A stretch of DNA of 64,000 nt, from IMG/VR virus record IMGVR_UViG_3300024999_000068, positions 22,551 to 86,550 of that record; one strand, written 5' to 3'. This document shows positions 33,902 to 38,160 of the stretch, piece by piece. Under the pieces are notes generated by a model. It saw only the letters and a program-made list of their open reading frames with translations. It had not been told where the DNA came from and did not search any database. Positions within the stretch are counted from its first letter, which is position 1, and every line of letters starts with the position of its first letter. The translations under genes and the position numbers were made by a program. Source of the DNA: a virus.

Positions 33902-34672
33902 TCACAATGCAAATACTAATACCTTTGCAAATAATATCAACCCACCTAACAATATTGAACCACCAACTATTTTTGTTTTTGCTGTTTTACCTTCCTCTGT
34001 ATCTTCCACATTATCAGGTTGAACTATAGGTGGAAATACAGGATCTTTTATCTCTTGTGTTTGTCCTGCATCAGTTGTTAAATGAGTTTTTACTTTGGAT
34101 ATCAATTTTTCTAAATTGTCATTATCTTTAAAATGTTTTCCAATTTCTACCTCTATTTCATCAGTAACACCTTCTGCCGTGACAGTTCTCCTATACTTAA
34201 AAATATCTTTATCATATCTTCCGTTCATACCAGTATTTTTAATTTTATTTTGCACATATCTTCCAATTCTATCTAATCCACCTAAACTTGCTAATTGCAT
34301 ATTTGAAGGAGTTGCCACAATCATATCTCCATTACTTAATTTTTTATTCCATTCTTGTAAAGTGCCATAGCCTAAACTTGGATTTGATTCTAGCCAGAAC
34401 ATATTATTGTTTTGTGGCATTGGATAAAGATAATATAATTTATGATATGGTTTAGTTACATAATCAGTTGGAGTTGCTTTTGCTACGAATGGATTTATTA
34501 GTGTAATGCCTACTAATATCATCATTATTGATAATGCTAAATTCCTACGAATAGATGATTTTTTCAATACAATCATTCTTAATTTCATATAATTACCCCT
34601 TTCTTTTTCAAGAATAAGAATTCTGCGTCTAGAACTTCCATAATATCTTCTCGCGATAATGCGGTTTCCCAC
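33902..34672 (-). CDS. Exported protein with N-terminal signal and C-terminal TM anchor (probable start ~34588)
   Basis: LALSIMMILVGITLINPFVAKA signal; IVGGSILLGGLILFAKVLVFAL tail. Confidence 0.6.
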   Translation of the reverse strand: MGNRIIARRYYGSSRRRILILEKERGNYMKLRMIVLKKSSIRRNLALSIMMILVGITLINPFVAKATPTDYVTKPYHKLYYLYPMPQNNNMFWLESNPSLGYGTLQEWNKKLSNGDMIVATPSNMQLASLGGLDRIGRYVQNKIKNTGMNGRYDKDIFKYRRTVTAEGVTDEIEVEIGKHFKDNDNLEKLISKVKTHLTTDAGQTQEIKDPVFPPIVQPDNVEDTEEGKTAKTKIVGGSILLGGLILFAKVLVFAL

Positions 34673-34824
34673 GCGATAAAATCAATCAATTCTTGTTCTT
34701 CAATATCAGGAATTTGATCAGTATTAACTAGTAACCATTTTCGATATTCTCTTTCACTTAACCAACGGTTTGAATATTTTATGACAAATTTACGAAACAA
34801 TTCTTTTGCTTTTGTAGTTTTCAT
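34585..34824 (-). CDS. Hypothetical protein
   Basis: 79 aa, AGAGGTG RBS. Confidence 0.55.
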   Translation of the reverse strand: MKTTKAKELFRKFVIKYSNRWLSEREYRKWLLVNTDQIPDIEEQELIDFIAWETALSREDIMEVLDAEFLFLKKKGVII

Positions 34825-34845
34825 ATGAACACCTCTTTCTTACAA

Positions 34846-35502
34846 TCATTTTAAATAACTAATTGGATTTACAGTTTTACCATTAATTCTAATCTCAAAA
34901 TGTAAGTGATTTCCAGTAGAACCAAATCCTGAAGATCCTATTTCTGCAATCTTTTCACCGCTAAAAGCCATTTTGCCTTCCGTGACAATAACTTTTGAAC
35001 AATGAGCATATAGAGTTTCATATCCATTACCATGATCAATAATAACGTGTAATCCGTATGGGCCTTCAGAATTAATAATCTTCTCAACTTTTCCTGTTCG
35101 ACTAACTTTTATCACATCTCCTAAGTTTCCAGAAATGTCCAAACCATGATGAGTATCCCCAGTATAATTCTGTGTAATTTTACCCTTAATAGGCCAACTA
35201 AATTTTGCTCCTAAATATCTCTCCCATATATTTTTATAGCCGACATCCATAGTTTCACTATTACTATCAATTCCTAAAACATTATTAATCTTCTCCTTTC
35301 CTCCGCTATAAGTCATAGCAATAGAATGAATATCATCACTAAATTGTTTTAGAGGAGCAAAAGTACATGATATAACCATTAATCCTAAACTAACAACTGC
35401 AAGCCACTTAATTGCTAATGCCATCTCTCTACCAGAAGTATGTCTAACATAAATATAAACCACTAAATATAAAGCACTTAAGCGTACAAGATTGGAAATC
35501 AT
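34846..35502 (-). CDS. M23/LytM peptidase with two N-terminal TM helices
   Basis: WPIKG.ITQ, HHGLD, YETLYAH, GSSG.GSTGNHLHFEIR.NG..VNP. Confidence 0.9.
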   Translation of the reverse strand: MISNLVRLSALYLVVYIYVRHTSGREMALAIKWLAVVSLGLMVISCTFAPLKQFSDDIHSIAMTYSGGKEKINNVLGIDSNSETMDVGYKNIWERYLGAKFSWPIKGKITQNYTGDTHHGLDISGNLGDVIKVSRTGKVEKIINSEGPYGLHVIIDHGNGYETLYAHCSKVIVTEGKMAFSGEKIAEIGSSGFGSTGNHLHFEIRINGKTVNPISYLK

Positions 35503-35705
35503 TTGAAAACCTCTGCCACTTTTTTAAGAAAATCTAGAGAAGCATTTAGCACTATAAGAGTTACTAGTATTAAACCAAGGGTATCTGCGTAATACGTCCA
35601 TTCACCTTTCCCAAATATTTTAAGTCCCATTTTTACCACTTGTAAACCCACAGCGATGCCAAGAATAGCTAAAATTGGGGTAGACGCTTGAATTCCTTGG
35701 AACAT
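35499..35705 (-). CDS. SpoIIIAC-like small two-TM membrane protein
   Basis: 68 aa; I..I.G..V......L...GK.E......L.G......V......L.K....VF pattern as recalled for SpoIIIAC. Confidence 0.6.
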   Translation of the reverse strand: MFQGIQASTPILAILGIAVGLQVVKMGLKIFGKGEWTYYADTLGLILVTLIVLNASLDFLKKVAEVFK

Positions 35706-36427
35706 TTTAACTCCTCCTTTTTTGCTAAATGAAGTTTTGAACAGAAGTTTTTAATTTCATCAAGAGTAAGAAGTTCTATCGAATATGGGAATGCTTTATC
35801 CTTGTTGATTATCTTCTGAATTTTGTTTTTTGCTGTATCACCTCCATCAGTTACAATTAAAACTACAAATGTTTGATTTTTGGACAAGTCTATCCACCAA
35901 TAAGTAGAAATGCCTTGATATTTATCTTTAATTAGTTTTTCTGCCAAGGAGTTGTATTGCTTGATTTTTTTAAATTCATTCCCTGATTCATATCTGGTAA
36001 ATTCATTGAAATATATCTTTTTGTCATTAAATGTATCAAATGTCATAAATTGATCTGGTTTTATAATTGGTAAAAATTGATTTGGTTCATTCTCAAAAGT
36101 AAGATTCGTATAATTACTTGCTCTAGCATTAAGGACAATAAAAGTATAAATCCATGATTTACCTAATGTGTGTTCGATATTCTTAGGTTTTTTCTCATCA
36201 AATAACCAAAAATAATCTTTTTCTAAAAATGAAATTCTATCACCTCTCTTAATCCTATGTTTTTTCTCTAATCTTCTACAACAACGATGTGCCATTTCAA
36301 TTGAAAGACCTTGGAATTCAAGTAAATGGATTTGTGTTGTGTTCAAGCAGATACAACGTTCTAGATGTGTTAACACTCTTAAATCTCGGTAGTAACCCTT
36401 TGTATGATTTGTTTGATTCACAATCAT
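35669..36427 (-). CDS. Replication-relaxation (Replic_Relax) family protein
   Basis: RD..VL..L.....L.T.QI..L.F wHTH, EHTL, IKPD...E; directly after FtsK. Confidence 0.7.
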   Translation of the reverse strand: MIVNQTNHTKGYYRDLRVLTHLERCICLNTTQIHLLEFQGLSIEMAHRCCRRLEKKHRIKRGDRISFLEKDYFWLFDEKKPKNIEHTLGKSWIYTFIVLNARASNYTNLTFENEPNQFLPIIKPDQFMTFDTFNDKKIYFNEFTRYESGNEFKKIKQYNSLAEKLIKDKYQGISTYWWIDLSKNQTFVVLIVTDGGDTAKNKIQKIINKDKAFPYSIELLTLDEIKNFCSKLHLAKKEELKCSKEFKRLPQF

Positions 36428-37742
36428 AGACCTCCCCTTGAATGTCTGTATAAGGCATAGGATATTGAATTAATTTAGATAGTAATTCTTCGTATTTATC
36501 TGGGTCTGATGCAATACTAGGAAAATACATAGACTGTACCTCTATTTCTTCATCCCAATCAAATATTGCTCTACCCTTTGCTTTTTTAGGGATAAATGCT
36601 GCTTTTGAATTTCCTAAAACCATATTGGAGTTCGTCGCATCCTTTACTTTATAAACTAAATTAGCGTTAAACATTGCCTTTAACTCACTGAAGTTTCCTA
36701 TTTTACCAAGACTATTTGCACTCGGTCTCTGAATTGCTCCTACGGAAAAAATTCCTTGGGATCTCCCTTGATGAAGTAATCGATTAAAAGATTCATATGC
36801 ATCGGAAGTGAATTCTGCCATTTCATCACAAAAAATTACTAGTGCTGGCATTTGGTATCCTAGTTTTAAAAACTCTGGGAAATTTCTAGCTCCAGTTTTA
36901 CTAACTATTTGTGCTCTGCGATCATTTTCTACATTAACTTGTTTTAATAATTTCTCTATGTGTGAATGTTCTTTTGCCCACAAAGCACCATATTTTTCAA
37001 AATATTTAAATTCACCAAGTTTAGGATCACATATTACAGGGATCACAGCAGGTTCACTATCAATACCTTTCAAACTGTTTATAAGTAGCATTGTATAAAT
37101 AGCAACATGACTAAAATTTGATTTACCTGAACCCATTTGTCCTACAAGTAAAAGTGTAAGCATATCACACAAATCTTTAACTATTAATCCGTTAATCGAG
37201 TATCCAAAAGGGATAGGAATTACCATACCCCTTTTTAGATATAGTGTCGGATCAAAATTATAAGGATATGTTTTAGTTCTGTTTACATTAGAAATAGTCA
37301 TATGAACTGCCATGCCGTGTTGCTCAATCTGGCAATTGCCTGTTTCTCCTAAAGCGTCTGCGAAAGTTTGTTCTAATTTTTTAAAATTTTCAAAGTTTAG
37401 TCCGGCAGGAAGATTAATTACAAAAAACCAAGTTTCATTATTATGTTCATCTAAACTTTTAATCCTTTGGATTACTTCTTTAATACTTTTAGGTCTACTT
37501 AATTTAGTTTGTTCTGCTACATCTTCATCCTTCGGTTTTACAAGATGCCTTTTGATAATTATAGGACGATAATCTTCTCCATAATGAAACACAATTACAT
37601 CATAAACTTTTGCAGGAATTCCACCACCACGCTCTCTTCCTTTTTTCCATTGTTTAATTGCAAGATCATAAGCATCCATTTTGTTTGACATAAATTCACC
37701 TTCTTTATAGTGATTATGAATAAGTAACAAAAGTGTGAACAT
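36318..37742 (-). CDS. FtsK/SpoIIIE-family ATPase (probable start ~37691)
   Basis: Walker A GQMGSGKS, DPK..EF, Walker B VIFCDE, GRSQGI...AIQRP, KGRAI. Confidence 0.9.
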   Translation of the reverse strand: MFTLLLLIHNHYKEGEFMSNKMDAYDLAIKQWKKGRERGGGIPAKVYDVIVFHYGEDYRPIIIKRHLVKPKDEDVAEQTKLSRPKSIKEVIQRIKSLDEHNNETWFFVINLPAGLNFENFKKLEQTFADALGETGNCQIEQHGMAVHMTISNVNRTKTYPYNFDPTLYLKRGMVIPIPFGYSINGLIVKDLCDMLTLLLVGQMGSGKSNFSHVAIYTMLLINSLKGIDSEPAVIPVICDPKLGEFKYFEKYGALWAKEHSHIEKLLKQVNVENDRRAQIVSKTGARNFPEFLKLGYQMPALVIFCDEMAEFTSDAYESFNRLLHQGRSQGIFSVGAIQRPSANSLGKIGNFSELKAMFNANLVYKVKDATNSNMVLGNSKAAFIPKKAKGRAIFDWDEEIEVQSMYFPSIASDPDKYEELLSKLIQYPMPYTDIQGEVYDCESNKSYKGLLPRFKSVNTSRTLYLLEHNTNPFT

Positions 37743-38160
37743 ACGTTTGCTGAAACATTATTCACAACGTTTACCGATACAAACGGTTAACAAGCTAAAA
37801 ACTGCATGTAGCAAGGAATCTAAAATCAAAAGAAGAGAAGGAGGAACAATGTGCCGACAGATAATGAATCGTATGAAAGAGGACAGTAGATAATGTTTGG
37901 TAAATATTATGAGTTAGTGAAAAAAGGGATAAAGTAAATTAAGGCAGTCTATTATCTTTTATAGACTTGCCTTAATTTAATAAAAATGCCATATATTTAT
38001 TAAATTTAATTGGTTATTTTATTAAATGAACTAAACTTACAGAACATGCAATCACTAATGATGATCCAGATATAATACATATAATTCCTATTAATGCCAT
38101 AACTATTCATCCCCTTTGGAAGATTATTATAGATTTAATATTACCAAAGAAAAAACAAAT

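Follow-up and report, generated by a model that had tools for sequence, protein, structure and literature searches.

A phage operon joining an FtsK/TcpA-type ATPase and a Replic_Relax protein to predicted envelope proteins, a candidate DNA translocation module

Genes for a soluble FtsK-like ATPase followed directly by a Replic_Relax protein of ~210 to 250 amino acids (aa) are paired in Bacillus phages and Bacillaceae plasmids (PfEFR-4, 268TH007, and Priestia megaterium and B. cereus plasmids). The unit includes a small protein with two transmembrane (TM) segments, has lysogeny, replication, or partition genes nearby, and recurs as a trio among these phages and plasmids. In the accessible text of two reports, such pairs are placed with plasmid replication and segregation genes (PMC9658697, PMC11526630), and in the literature on the Bacillus phage pairs, we found no demonstration of nicking, pumping, or a complex. 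The operon described here shares the gene pair, the presence of a small two-TM protein, and the genomic setting, and an earlier reading of the DNA, made from the sequence only, had correctly noted the pairing in Bacillus phages. However, the two-TM protein of the Bacillus unit is encoded upstream of the ATPase and has no detectable kinship to the 68-aa hairpin protein of this operon or to SpoIIIAC (scores of 14.6 and 11.5). The Bacillus unit also lacks an M23 peptidase and an exported protein, its ATPases are only 23 to 29% identical to ours, and its genes overlap by 14 nt, compared with ~104 to 110 nt here. What is novel in this operon is the M23 peptidase, the SpoIIIAC-like hairpin, and an orphan exported protein; FtsK and Replic_Relax proteins with an unrelated two-TM protein were already known.

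A second likeness is to modules that combine TcpA with a noncanonical relaxase, such as the Tcp locus of pCW3 and the compact mobilization modules of streptococcal IMEs, in which TcpA is encoded upstream of the relaxase, according to the accessible portion of PMC5357655. The motor of the phage ATPase matches TcpA, the gene order is the same, and in pCW3, too, a wall hydrolase is encoded in one operon with small membrane proteins. In contrast, the phage operon has no counterparts of VirB4 (TcpF), VirB6 (TcpH), or VirB8 (TcpC), it encodes a Replic_Relax protein instead of TcpM and an M23 peptidase instead of a glucosaminidase, its ATPase lacks the TM segments of TcpA, and its carrier is a tailed phage. 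The TraB protein of Streptomyces plasmids, an FtsK-like protein for double-strand DNA transfer, is also built around an FtsK-family central motor and works with no VirB4. TraB is distinguished by its own membrane domain and clt-site logic; the plasmid_TraB score of the phage ATPase is far below the cut-off, and the host type differs.

Finally, the Bacillus subtilis SpoIIIA-SpoIIQ channel and SpoIIIE, as far as the available text of PMC2703783 describes them, likewise bring together an FtsK-family pump, a two-TM hairpin of ~65 aa, and an anchored LytM/M23 protein. Unlike that system, the phage operon includes a relaxase and has no counterparts of SpoIIIAA, AB, AE, AF, AG, or AH. Its hairpin scores far under the family cut-offs, and its M23 protein differs from SpoIIQ in having two TM segments, intact metal ligands, and a better match to generic M23 models.

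The window, by which we mean the whole 64,000-nt stretch of viral DNA analyzed, carries the operon on its minus strand. The parts list of the sequence-only reading (overlapping genes for FtsK, relaxase, two-TM, TM-M23, and exported proteins) was right, and all five genes lie where it had placed them. The features are as follows.

37692..37900, minus strand: conserved noncoding leader/promoter region, with invariant blocks in clade 1
36318..37691, minus strand: FtsK/TcpA-type P-loop ATPase, 457 aa, soluble
35669..36427, minus strand: divergent Replic_Relax (MOB_C-type) protein, 252 aa (Relax)
35499..35705, minus strand: two-TM hairpin protein, 68 aa, remotely similar to SpoIIIAC
34846..35502, minus strand: M23 (LytM-type) peptidase, 218 aa, with an N-terminal two-TM hairpin anchor
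34585..34824, minus strand: variable 79-aa open reading frame (ORF), outside the conserved core
33902..34588, minus strand: exported protein, 228 aa, with a signal-peptide-like N terminus and a C-terminal TM anchor
33864..33890, minus strand: terminator-like hairpin (12 pairs, then TCTTTTTT) and T-run

Successive genes overlap by 110, 37, 4, and 4 nt, with a single gap of 21 nt. The first ~35 codons of the Relax gene lie out of frame inside the ATPase gene, the 37-nt overlap is shared by the Relax and hairpin genes, and a 4-nt overlap joins the end of the 68-aa gene to the start of the M23 gene. Relatives and an AAGGTG ribosome-binding site indicate that the ATPase likely starts at the ATG at 37691 and not at 37742, and relatives also place the start of the exported protein 84 nt inside a 256-aa ORF. 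The terminator-like hairpin directly 3' of this last gene is the operon end.

The core order of FtsK, Relax, small two-TM protein, TM-M23, and exported protein is kept in two clades, with a positional equivalent of the 68-aa hairpin in both; because the ATPases of the two clades are only 37 to 40% identical, the association goes beyond chance. Among 32 metagenome or metagenome-assembled genome (MAG) loci whose downstream sequence extends for 3.3 kb or more, 30 have Relax, M23, and exported protein, and the other 2 have no detectable exported protein. FtsK and Relax occur together in 17 of 19 viral loci, with both misses at contig ends. All members of the operon are metagenome derived. The window carrier is a phage-plasmid, an episome with ParM, whereas a second carrier is a prophage integrated beside an integrase gene in a Bacillota MAG that has spoIIIA.

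In addition to its motor, the ATPase has an N-terminal part of ~120 aa and a conserved C-terminal tail. It has no TM segment by hydropathy (maximum KD19, 1.51) and no FtsK_gamma match at an E value of ≤1, as had been supposed from its sequence. The FtsK_SpoIIIE model (PF01580; cut-off, 24 bits) gives 23.8 bits, phrog_1358 matches with an E value of 3.3e-35, and NCBIfam plasmid_TraB gives 31.6 bits (E, 6.1e-8) against a cut-off of 800. Compared with the PDB, the ATPase profile places a "DNA translocase coupling protein" (6o1w; 7.7e-23) slightly ahead of FtsK (1.1e-21), and hhalign aligns the motor with pCW3 TcpA over 272 columns (99.2%; P, 1.8e-19).

Replic_Relax (PF13814) scores 17.5 bits on the window Relax protein, against a cut-off of 25.3, and is found at an E value of ≤0.1 in 5 of 13 orthologues. 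The Relax family profile retrieves 88 representatives; when its 60 full-length matches are taken with the window protein, PF13814 is found at an E value of ≤0.001 in 54 of the 61, making Relax, by profile linkage, a transitive member of Replic_Relax. H86, D125, E142, and Y158 are invariant across the same 61 sequences. The predicted structure is weak (pLDDT, 56), and Foldseek returned weak matches to it (TM scores of 0.25 to 0.34), mostly nuclease-fold and winged-helix chains. Relax has a winged-helix region at its N terminus and, after it, an alpha/beta region that resembles a nuclease.

PF01551 reaches 88.9 bits on the M23 protein, where the cut-off is 28.7. H118 and D122 align with the HxxxD of PDB 3slu, and H199 and H201 form HLH, so that the metal ligands HxxxD and HxH are intact; hydropathy places TM segments at residues 1 to 19 and 28 to 46. 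A SpoIIQ-like domain was considered and rejected, as the SpoIIQ model ranked 10th of 15 and the domain is generic. A separate Amidase_3 endolysin is encoded after the tail genes, and so the M23 protein need not be a lysin. In the exported protein, an N terminus resembling a signal peptide (…AKA/T) precedes a conserved domain of ~140 aa, which a Pro-rich linker connects to a TM anchor at the C terminus, and hydropathy confirmed the proposed double anchoring, with one hydrophobic segment at each terminus. By sequence comparison, it is an orphan family: it has no Pfam, NCBIfam, or PADLOC match, and its 70 relatives are all from metagenomes, 69 of them with no Pfam domain and one (P0048) listing PF00009. 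Structure prediction gave a poor model (pLDDT, 55.4), for which no fold matched at a Z score of ≥5, and Atlas scores are all <0.8.

We tentatively favor, at somewhat short of an even chance, the reading that the operon is a phage-borne, envelope-tethered module for DNA translocation or mobilization, of the coupling ATPase plus relaxase type. What is established is which genes the operon contains, how they are ordered, coupled, and conserved, the domain families of the proteins, and their predicted topology; from these we infer the substrate, complex, direction, and timing. In this scheme, the Replic_Relax protein, with its winged-helix and nuclease folds, would recognize and probably nick a site in phage or plasmid DNA and pass this DNA on to the ring ATPase of the FtsK/TcpA type, which, having no anchor, would be kept at the membrane by the three cotranslated envelope proteins. 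The SpoIIIAC-like hairpin would be one tether, the active M23 endopeptidase would open peptidoglycan locally from its two-TM anchor, and the exported protein would be a surface protein, anchored at its C terminus, on a proline-rich stalk. Most likely, the module would serve to move episomal or excised phage DNA into a neighboring cell, either through a resident conjugative pore, as with mobilizable elements that have a TcpA-relaxase pair, or through the division septum. This reading is supported by the five-gene order and coupling kept across two clades, the TcpA/coupling-protein match of the motor, the placement of Relax in Replic_Relax, a family equated with MOB_C relaxases in the accessible portion of PMC5357655, the intact ligands and anchoring of M23, the membrane nature of the hairpin and exported protein, the separate endolysin, and the related trio in Bacillus phages and plasmids. 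Counting against it are the score of Relax under the Pfam cut-off and its low-confidence model, the lack of a known fold or family for the exported protein, the metagenomic origin of all members, and the results of searches for transfer machinery. A six-frame AAA_10 search for VirB4 in four records, one of them 100% complete, gave nothing over the cut-off, the sole weak match being the FtsK-like gene itself, and the large ORFs of the window encode tail, RNR, helicase, polymerase, and similar proteins, in keeping with the earlier remark that the window lacks VirB4. Also, the other operon proteins have no similarity to TcpC, D, E, G, I, or M, and no oriT was identified.

An unlikely but credible alternative is that two unrelated units are linked, with FtsK and Relax helping the episome to replicate, resolve, or segregate and the other three proteins forming a cassette of the lysogen-surface or lysis type (a protein resembling a holin, a membrane-tethered wall hydrolase, and a surface protein, acting, e.g., in superinfection exclusion or wall remodeling). 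The Bacillus pairs, with their replication and segregation neighbors and no M23 or exported protein, are consistent with this, as are the ParM and O-like replication initiator genes that adjoin the operon, the Phage_holin_Dp1 matches of 2 of 12 hairpin proteins (E, 0.012), and the variable small ORFs inserted between the M23 and exported-protein genes. However, the five genes stay together and ordered in both clades, the Relax/hairpin overlap spans the supposed boundary, the phage has its separate endolysin, and none of the 32 informative loci has only FtsK and Relax or only the membrane half.

We consider it improbable that the operon is a sporulation module, in which the pump and its envelope partners would load phage DNA into the forespore at the septum or engulfing membranes, possibly by inserting into or copying SpoIIIA-SpoIIQ. 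In its favor, the hosts are probably spore-formers, as had been expected: the Bacillota MAG, one of two genome matches, has spoIIIAC/AD, which are present in every genome sampled from its class (41 of 41), and Spo0A_C-domain proteins are encoded on three contigs of phages or prophages that bear the module. Also in its favor, 37 of 46 records of ATPase relatives in cultivated phages are from Bacillus or Geobacillus, and the window phage, as a ParM episome, would need a route into the forespore. In contrast, a prophage integrated beside its integrase, as in the second carrier, enters the spore with the chromosome and needs no pump.

The 68-aa protein, which has two TM segments by hydropathy, shows a weak resemblance to SpoIIIAC in four methods, with every score under the family cut-offs. 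By hhalign, P is 2.3e-5, and 0 of 80 topology-keeping shuffles reach the score; among 140 small two-TM ORFs, the protein ranks straight behind true SpoIIIAC proteins; TIGR02848 gives 17 bits (E, 0.0062) against a cut-off of 56.65, with the hairpin as the sole six-frame match in 3 of 5 phage records; and its language-model neighbor clusters are SpoIIIAC-like (scores of 0.90 and 0.88). The likeness proposed by the sequence-only reading stands to that extent, but PF06686 gave nothing at an E value of ≤1, a profile of the phage hairpin family failed to recover SpoIIIAC in five spore-former genomes, and clade-2 hairpins are marginal (scores of 19 to 24), with no six-frame SpoIIIAC-model match in one clade-2 record (G045). 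The same reading's extension to the M23 N terminus did not hold: family-wide, the score is 11.8 (P, 0.11), and the local loop match to SpoIIIAC is confined to clade 1, although in one relative, it is the hairpin at the N terminus of M23, and not the small protein, that the SpoIIIAC model matches (E, 0.02). The suggested sigma-E/K-like -10 motif, CATACGAT, is present in the leader at 37868 to 37875 but carries no statistical weight, since chance alone predicts 35.4 copies of CATACNNT in the window and the observed count is 24; sigma-70-like sites are likewise unenriched (27 against 34.1 expected). There is, so far, no tie between the operon and sporulation. Of the original proposal, a module moving DNA into the spore or between cells, the parts list, the weak hairpin likeness, and the probable hosts survive, while the M23 domain, the promoter, and the cut-offs lend it no support, and the function would be conjecture from these parts.

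A known antiphage defense or counterdefense system made from an FtsK-like ATPase and a nuclease is very improbable: the ATPase domain matches the SspH and mad8 models of PADLOC and the Relax model weakly resembles Hachiman, SduA, and McrC (E, 0.03 to 0.1), but PADLOC is blank for the remaining six proteins, matches only the ATPase domain of the first, and the Foldseek scores come from a low-confidence model.

By tblastn, the 79-aa ORF, a sixth gene absent from the first list of the operon, has counterparts in 5 of the 19 viral loci, with 74 to 92% identity in three of them and 37% in L064 and L065, and it has only subthreshold helix-turn-helix matches; elsewhere, other small ORFs or none lie at this position. 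The leader contains direct repeats (ACGTTT…) at 37743 to 37757 and 37767 to 37781, and its long invariant blocks extend across five clade-1 loci.

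The virus record from which the window was taken (bases 22551 to 86550) is 86.5 kb long with an estimated completeness of 57%, and the window has a GC content of about 29%. Its tail genes are of siphophage type (tape measure, Prophage_tail, and YOMG_N) and are accompanied by an Amidase_3 endolysin. The window also encodes replication and nucleotide genes, an actin-type partition ATPase, and an O-like replication initiator. The tail genes, partition ATPase, and replication initiator therefore indicate a tailed phage with plasmid-type maintenance genes. Its minus strand carries an operon with the following features.

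36318-37691, minus strand: FtsK-like ATPase gene, first in operon order
35669-36427, minus strand: Replic_Relax-like gene (Relax), after the ATPase gene
35499-35705, minus strand: 68-aa hairpin gene, after the Relax gene
34846-35502, minus strand: M23 gene, after the 68-aa gene
34585-34824, minus strand: 79-aa ORF, variable, between the M23 and exported-protein genes
33902-34588, minus strand: exported-protein gene, last in the operon
33890-33864, minus strand: terminator-like hairpin, after the exported-protein gene and before a DndB-like gene

Consecutive genes are joined, in order, by overlaps of 110, 37, and 4 nt, a gap of 21 nt, and a final overlap of 4 nt, and every gene is preceded by a purine-rich ribosome site. 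By hydropathy, the ATPase and Relax have no predicted transmembrane (TM) segments; the 68-aa protein has two, the M23 protein has two at its N terminus, and the exported protein has one at either end. The sequence-only reading had described this operon, and its genes, their order, and their membrane segments were all recovered in the window; from gene order, overlaps, and hydropathy, that description is therefore correct. Its list of five genes stands, with two start codons mended (37691 rather than 37742 for the ATPase, and 84 nt inside a 256-aa ORF for the exported protein) and the variable 79-aa ORF added. At the first junction, the final ~35 ATPase codons overlap the first ~35 of the Relax gene out of frame, over ~104 to 110 nt, in both of the clades into which operon-bearing loci fall (36318-36427 in the window, which belongs to clade 1; the same junction occurs in loci L002-L007, L059-L069, and L076). 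Conservation extends to both products of this overlap: the tail of the ATPase (…NPF[AT]) and the N terminus of Relax.

The module recurs as a unit. Close relatives of the ATPase, at 68 to 89% identity, are found on 7 viral contigs, and the exported protein as query led to 19 viral loci. By tblastn, the ATPase and Relax are present at 17 of the 19 and M23 at 18, the misses being short contigs that end on that side. Identities to clade 2 are 37 to 40% for the ATPase, 32 to 35% for Relax, 36 to 53% for M23, and 60 to 66% for the exported protein. The 68-aa protein has no tblastn match in clade 2; a 73-aa two-TM ORF occupies the hairpin position at all seven clade-2 loci inspected, with 15 to 25% identity to the clade-1 hairpin (hhalign P = 4.7e-6). 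A further set comprised 46 metagenome loci and 2 loci from metagenome-assembled genomes (MAGs); these partly repeat the viral loci, as the same contigs under two names, and the two counts are not independent. Sequence downstream of the ATPase gene extends for at least 3.3 kb at 32 of the loci, and at 30 of the 32 the ATPase gene is followed, in order, by those for Relax, M23, and the exported protein. The hydropathy rule detected a two-TM ORF in 26 of these 30, and at least one of the four misses (L161, whose coordinates are those of L059) has one by eye. Small ORFs between the M23 and exported-protein genes are variable or absent across loci. Megablast of the 4-kb operon stretch against plasmids and phages gave no match, and a search of sequencing runs listed no RNA run, with shares in DNA runs of at most 0.34. 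A single metagenome contig of 164,428 bases holds three copies of the module (L152, L153, and L164) at ~66.4-kb spacing; this contig resembles an assembled concatemer of a ~66-kb genome, in agreement with a 66.5-kb relative rated 100% complete.

The ATPase scores 23.8 bits against the FtsK/SpoIIIE family PF01580, just under the cut-off of 24, and matches phrog_1358 at an E value of 3.3e-35. Its GSGKS (Walker A), DE (Walker B), and QRPS motifs are invariant in the ATPase alignment (A3). The best profile match in the PDB is a "DNA translocase coupling protein" (7.7e-23; entry 6o1w, which we take to be TcpA), with FtsK at 1.1e-21, and hhalign against TcpA of the pCW3 Tcp conjugation locus gave 99.2% (P = 1.8e-19). 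NCBIfam models for EssC, TraB, EccC, and FtsK also matched, all far below their cut-offs. As judged from these motifs and profiles, the motor belongs to the FtsK/SpoIIIE family and is of TcpA/FtsK rather than VirD4 type. Chromosomal FtsK/SpoIIIE proteins carry an N-terminal membrane domain and a C-terminal gamma domain, whereas the phage ATPase lacks both, just as had been noticed from the sequence: hydropathy gave no TM segment, and FtsK_gamma, the KOPS/SRS-reading domain, had no match at E ≤ 1. In cultivated collections, ATPase relatives belong to Priestia and Bacillus plasmids in 222 of 237 records and to Bacillus and Geobacillus phages in 37 of 46, a Bacillus-heavy spread that is partly due to the reach of a 25%-identity search.

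Relax scores 17.5 bits against PF13814 (Replic_Relax), for which the cut-off is 25.3, and 5 of 13 orthologues match this family at E ≤ 0.1 (best, 6.9e-5). A profile of the Relax family retrieved 88 representatives out of 1.84 billion proteins; 60 were kept for the alignment after 28 short or partial ones were removed by eye. With the window protein added to these 60 full-length matches, PF13814 is found at E ≤ 0.001 in 54 of 61, and H86, D125, E142, and Y158 are invariant in the alignment. Comparison with four Bacillus phage and plasmid proteins was colinear but weak (hhalign P = 0.0046). The predicted model is poor (pLDDT, 56.2; pTM, 0.55), and Foldseek returned from it a single match at E ≤ 0.001 (2ph7_B; TMq, 0.26), so that a nuclease-fold likeness is a weak hint drawn from a poor model. 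No oriT was found. Relax, with its four conserved residues and weak nuclease-fold matches, is a putative oriT-nicking relaxase. In the available parts of PMC5357655, PF13814 represents the MOB_C relaxase class, and mobilisation modules hold a TcpA-type motor and a relaxase in the order found here.

TcpA-type coupling proteins work with a type IV secretion system, including VirB4, encoded on the same element, whereas the phage module has none. The absence of VirB4 claimed for the window extends to four records (G000, G043, G044, and G045, the last 100% complete), none of which has an AAA_10 match over the cut-off. The operon proteins also lack similarity to TcpC, TcpD, TcpE, TcpG, and TcpI. With neither a VirB4-like ATPase in these records nor other Tcp matches, the operon is rejected as a type IV secretion system in its own right; a host-encoded one is a possible partner.

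The M23 protein scores 88.9 bits against PF01551 (cut-off, 28.7) and retains the metal ligands H118xxxD122 and H199xH201; as its domain and ligands predict, it is a clear Peptidase M23 member. Its closest models are the generic NlpD, ActS, and ShyA types. The SpoIIQ model NF053738 gives 50.1 bits against a cut-off of 250 and is 10th among 15 M23 models, and SpoIIQ structures are 19th and 20th of 34 PDB matches. SpoIIQ has a single N-terminal TM segment followed by a LytM domain, whereas the phage protein has two TM segments. By model score, rank, and topology, it is therefore not of SpoIIQ type. The sequence-only reading had also seen a SpoIIIAC/AD-like hairpin in the M23 N terminus; this likeness does not hold across the family (score, 11.8; P = 0.11), with clade 1 alone reaching 18.1 over 32 columns around the loop. 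In the alignment column of window residue 118 (A5), the first His of HxxxD is Asn in 4 of 13 M23 orthologues, and the adjacent H119 is invariant; the Asn-bearing copies may bind metal differently or be inactive. M23 is not the phage's only lysin, as the window encodes another endolysin (Amidase_3; 20303-21163) after the tail genes.

The exported protein combines an AKA/T site, recognised by eye as signal-peptidase-like, with a conserved domain, a Pro-rich linker, and a TM helix at its C terminus. Its 70 relatives are all metagenome-derived and without names, and 69 have no Pfam domain (the other, P0048, lists PF00009). Its AlphaFold model is poor (pLDDT, 55.4; pTM, 0.34); a fold search with VIA-align over 48,161 chains gave no Z ≥ 5, with rows aligning the C-terminal helix only; and look-alikes in the language-model atlas all fall below 0.8. 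Thus, no fold or family was found by model, structure search, or atlas. An identity with TcpC was rejected at the hhalign sensitivity used.

For the 68-aa protein, the proposed resemblance to SpoIIIAC stands in part. The family model PF06686 (SpoIIIAC/SpoIIIAD), the HMM suggested for checking it, has no match on the protein at E ≤ 1, and a six-frame search of the whole record at E ≤ 10 was likewise empty. TIGR02848 matches the full length at E = 0.0062, with 17 bits against a cut-off of 56.65. In six-frame searches of five phage records, it gives relatives 12 to 21 bits; the hairpin gene is the sole match in three clade-1 records (E = 4.5e-5 to 1.2e-3), the match in G044 is the M23 hairpin (E = 0.02), and the clade-2 record G045 has no match. 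Against a SpoIIIAC alignment built from 12 spore-former genomes, hhalign aligned 58 of 68 columns with a score of 29.0 (P = 2.3e-5). Reversed controls scored 10.1 and 10.9, and 80 shuffles that kept the TM-loop-TM layout scored 10.8 ± 1.9 (maximum, 16.1). When 140 small two-TM ORFs from 1.23 Mb of loci were ranked by the SpoIIIAC profile, 26 true SpoIIIAC proteins came first, followed by five clade-1 hairpins (27.6 to 33.4) and two from clade 2 (22.9 to 23.7). The top unrelated ORF scored 22.0, over 17 columns, and two hairpin orthologues scored low (L007, 16.9; L061, 19.4). In the language-model atlas, SpoIIIAC-labelled clusters hold ranks 2 and 3 (0.90 and 0.88; 207 and 204 shared features). 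Every positive SpoIIIAC score nevertheless lies far below family cut-offs, and the reverse search fails: a phage-hairpin profile run against five spore-former genomes recovers its own copy in the MAG and not SpoIIIAC.

The protein is thus a two-TM hairpin of ~65 aa with full-length SpoIIIAC profile similarity that falls short of the curated cut-off. The likeness is real but remote, and the 68-aa protein is no SpoIIIAC family member; whether the two are homologous seems to us evenly balanced, with homology a "perhaps." SpoIIIAC and SpoIIIAD are encoded in the spoIIIA operon of the host chromosome, whereas the hairpin gene sits in a phage operon between relaxase and M23 genes. TcpD, TcpE, and the two-TM proteins of Bacillus phages gave background scores in the hairpin comparison. 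Accordingly, the family of Bacillus-phage upstream two-TM proteins is rejected as an identity for the hairpin, as are TcpD and TcpE at the hhalign sensitivity used. A holin-endolysin lysis cassette would place a small holin-family TM protein beside the phage lysin; two of 12 hairpins match Phage_holin_Dp1 at E = 0.012, and the other endolysin of the window lies at 20303-21163. A complex prediction for M23 residues 1-70 with the 68-aa protein, run without controls, scored 0.00 against a mark of 0.32 and speaks neither for nor against an interaction.

A pattern scan of 185,579 species genomes found two loci, each with the whole operon. For the first (L076), the setting is a prophage of a Bacillota MAG; this prophage also encodes a tyrosine integrase, a virion protein, and both tail-fibre and lytic tail proteins. 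This MAG encodes spoIIIAC/AD, as do 41 of 41 sampled genomes of its class. The second (L077) lies in a 1.3-Mb MAG labelled Gammaproteobacteria, which has no SpoIIIAC match; because this bin (G002; L113-L122) mixes contigs of 37 to 41% GC with contigs of 60 to 67% GC, its label is unusable for the phage contig. Three module contigs (the L076 prophage contig, the L077 contig, and G044) carry ORFs above the Pfam cut-off that consist of a Spo0A_C domain only.

G001:C1:38035-38328: Spo0A_C-only ORF
G002:C5:4837-5121: Spo0A_C-only ORF
G044:C1:50535-50825 and 50911-51189: two Spo0A_C-only ORFs in tandem (L123 and L124)

None was found in five other records searched, the window's record included. A possible role for these proteins is that of decoys or mimics, made by the phage, of the master regulator of sporulation. 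The spoIIIAC/AD genes of the L076 MAG, the Spo0A_C ORFs, and the Bacillus-heavy ATPase relatives thus suggest that the hosts of module carriers, as a group, are probably endospore-forming Bacillota.

The pairing of a TcpA-type motor with a MOB_C-type protein, arranged as in a mobilisation module, points to one envelope-bound DNA-handling machine, as does the overlapping operon that joins them to a hairpin, an anchored wall hydrolase, and a surface protein. We tentatively favor DNA passage between cells or across the septum as the most likely function of such a machine. Set against a single machine, two linked but separate units would be an unlikely arrangement. Loading of phage DNA into the forespore is improbable: a role in sporulation is kept alive by the SpoIIIAC likeness, the Spo0A_C genes, and the host range, but the existence of an integrated-prophage copy and the generic character of M23 speak against a purely sporulation-bound one. 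Still less probable is a joint reading in which a SpoIIIAC-hairpin mimic (joined in clade 1 by another, fainter mimic that is fused to an active M23) would dock into or replace part of the SpoIIIA-SpoIIQ channel or sporulation septum, after which a relaxase-guided FtsK-type pump would deliver the phage genome into the forespore. A defence role is highly improbable, and a known defence system was ruled out by a defence-model search.

Pairs of FtsK/SpoIIIE and Replic_Relax genes rank with the most frequent unexplained genes in phages and plasmids of Bacillus type, where they are known as annotation; the sequence-only reading had stated that they occur in Bacillus phages. Published guesses for the pair, in the parts of the literature available, include plasmid replication or segregation, DNA injection, and forespore translocation. 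Neither the five-gene form nor a phage-borne SpoIIIAC-like gene was found in the available parts of the literature searched. For instance, spoIIIA and spoIIQ are absent among the phage sporulation genes in the main text of PMC10294663, whose supplementary lists might name spoIIIA-like ones. The present lineage ties the pair to a wall hydrolase and two membrane proteins, which argues that it works at the envelope and not in replication alone. Should the module transfer DNA from cell to cell, it would give tailed phages or phage-plasmids a second way to spread that needs no virion. Action at the sporulation septum would provide a mechanism by which phage genomes enter spores, and the joint reading of mimic and pump, if real, would describe a viral machine dedicated to entrapment in spores. 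The five-gene form offers clear experimental handles, including localisation, pull-downs, and deletions.

Upstream of the operon, the sigma-E/K reading of CATACGAT was set aside for want of statistical support: the motif class is not enriched in the window. CATAC is kept in four of five clade-1 leaders, with a variant in L005. In the non-coding leader (37692-37900, minus strand), long blocks are invariant across five clade-1 phages; these include a CT-rich run as well as two ACGTTT… direct repeats that lie 24 nt apart. Conservation this strong in clade 1 means that some cis element is there; the leader is a candidate for an operator or for a site resembling a transfer origin.

A very hydrophobic mini-ORF of 28 codons with a good ribosome site (38014-38100, minus strand) lies between the operon and the ParM gene and is followed by a perfect hairpin with 12-nt arms (37935-37979); the mini-ORF may encode a small membrane peptide or be a toxin-like gene. 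Directly downstream, behind the operon terminator, is a DndB/DGQHR-domain protein whose N terminus is extended by ~260 aa of acidic, coiled sequence (32236-33756, minus strand). Relatives of this protein (32 to 58% identity) adjoin the operon on several further contigs, in one case on the opposite side. Elsewhere in the window, the ribonucleotide reductase large subunit (49732-52959, minus strand) contains an intein carrying a LAGLIDADG endonuclease, and several HNH-type endonuclease genes are dispersed across the window.
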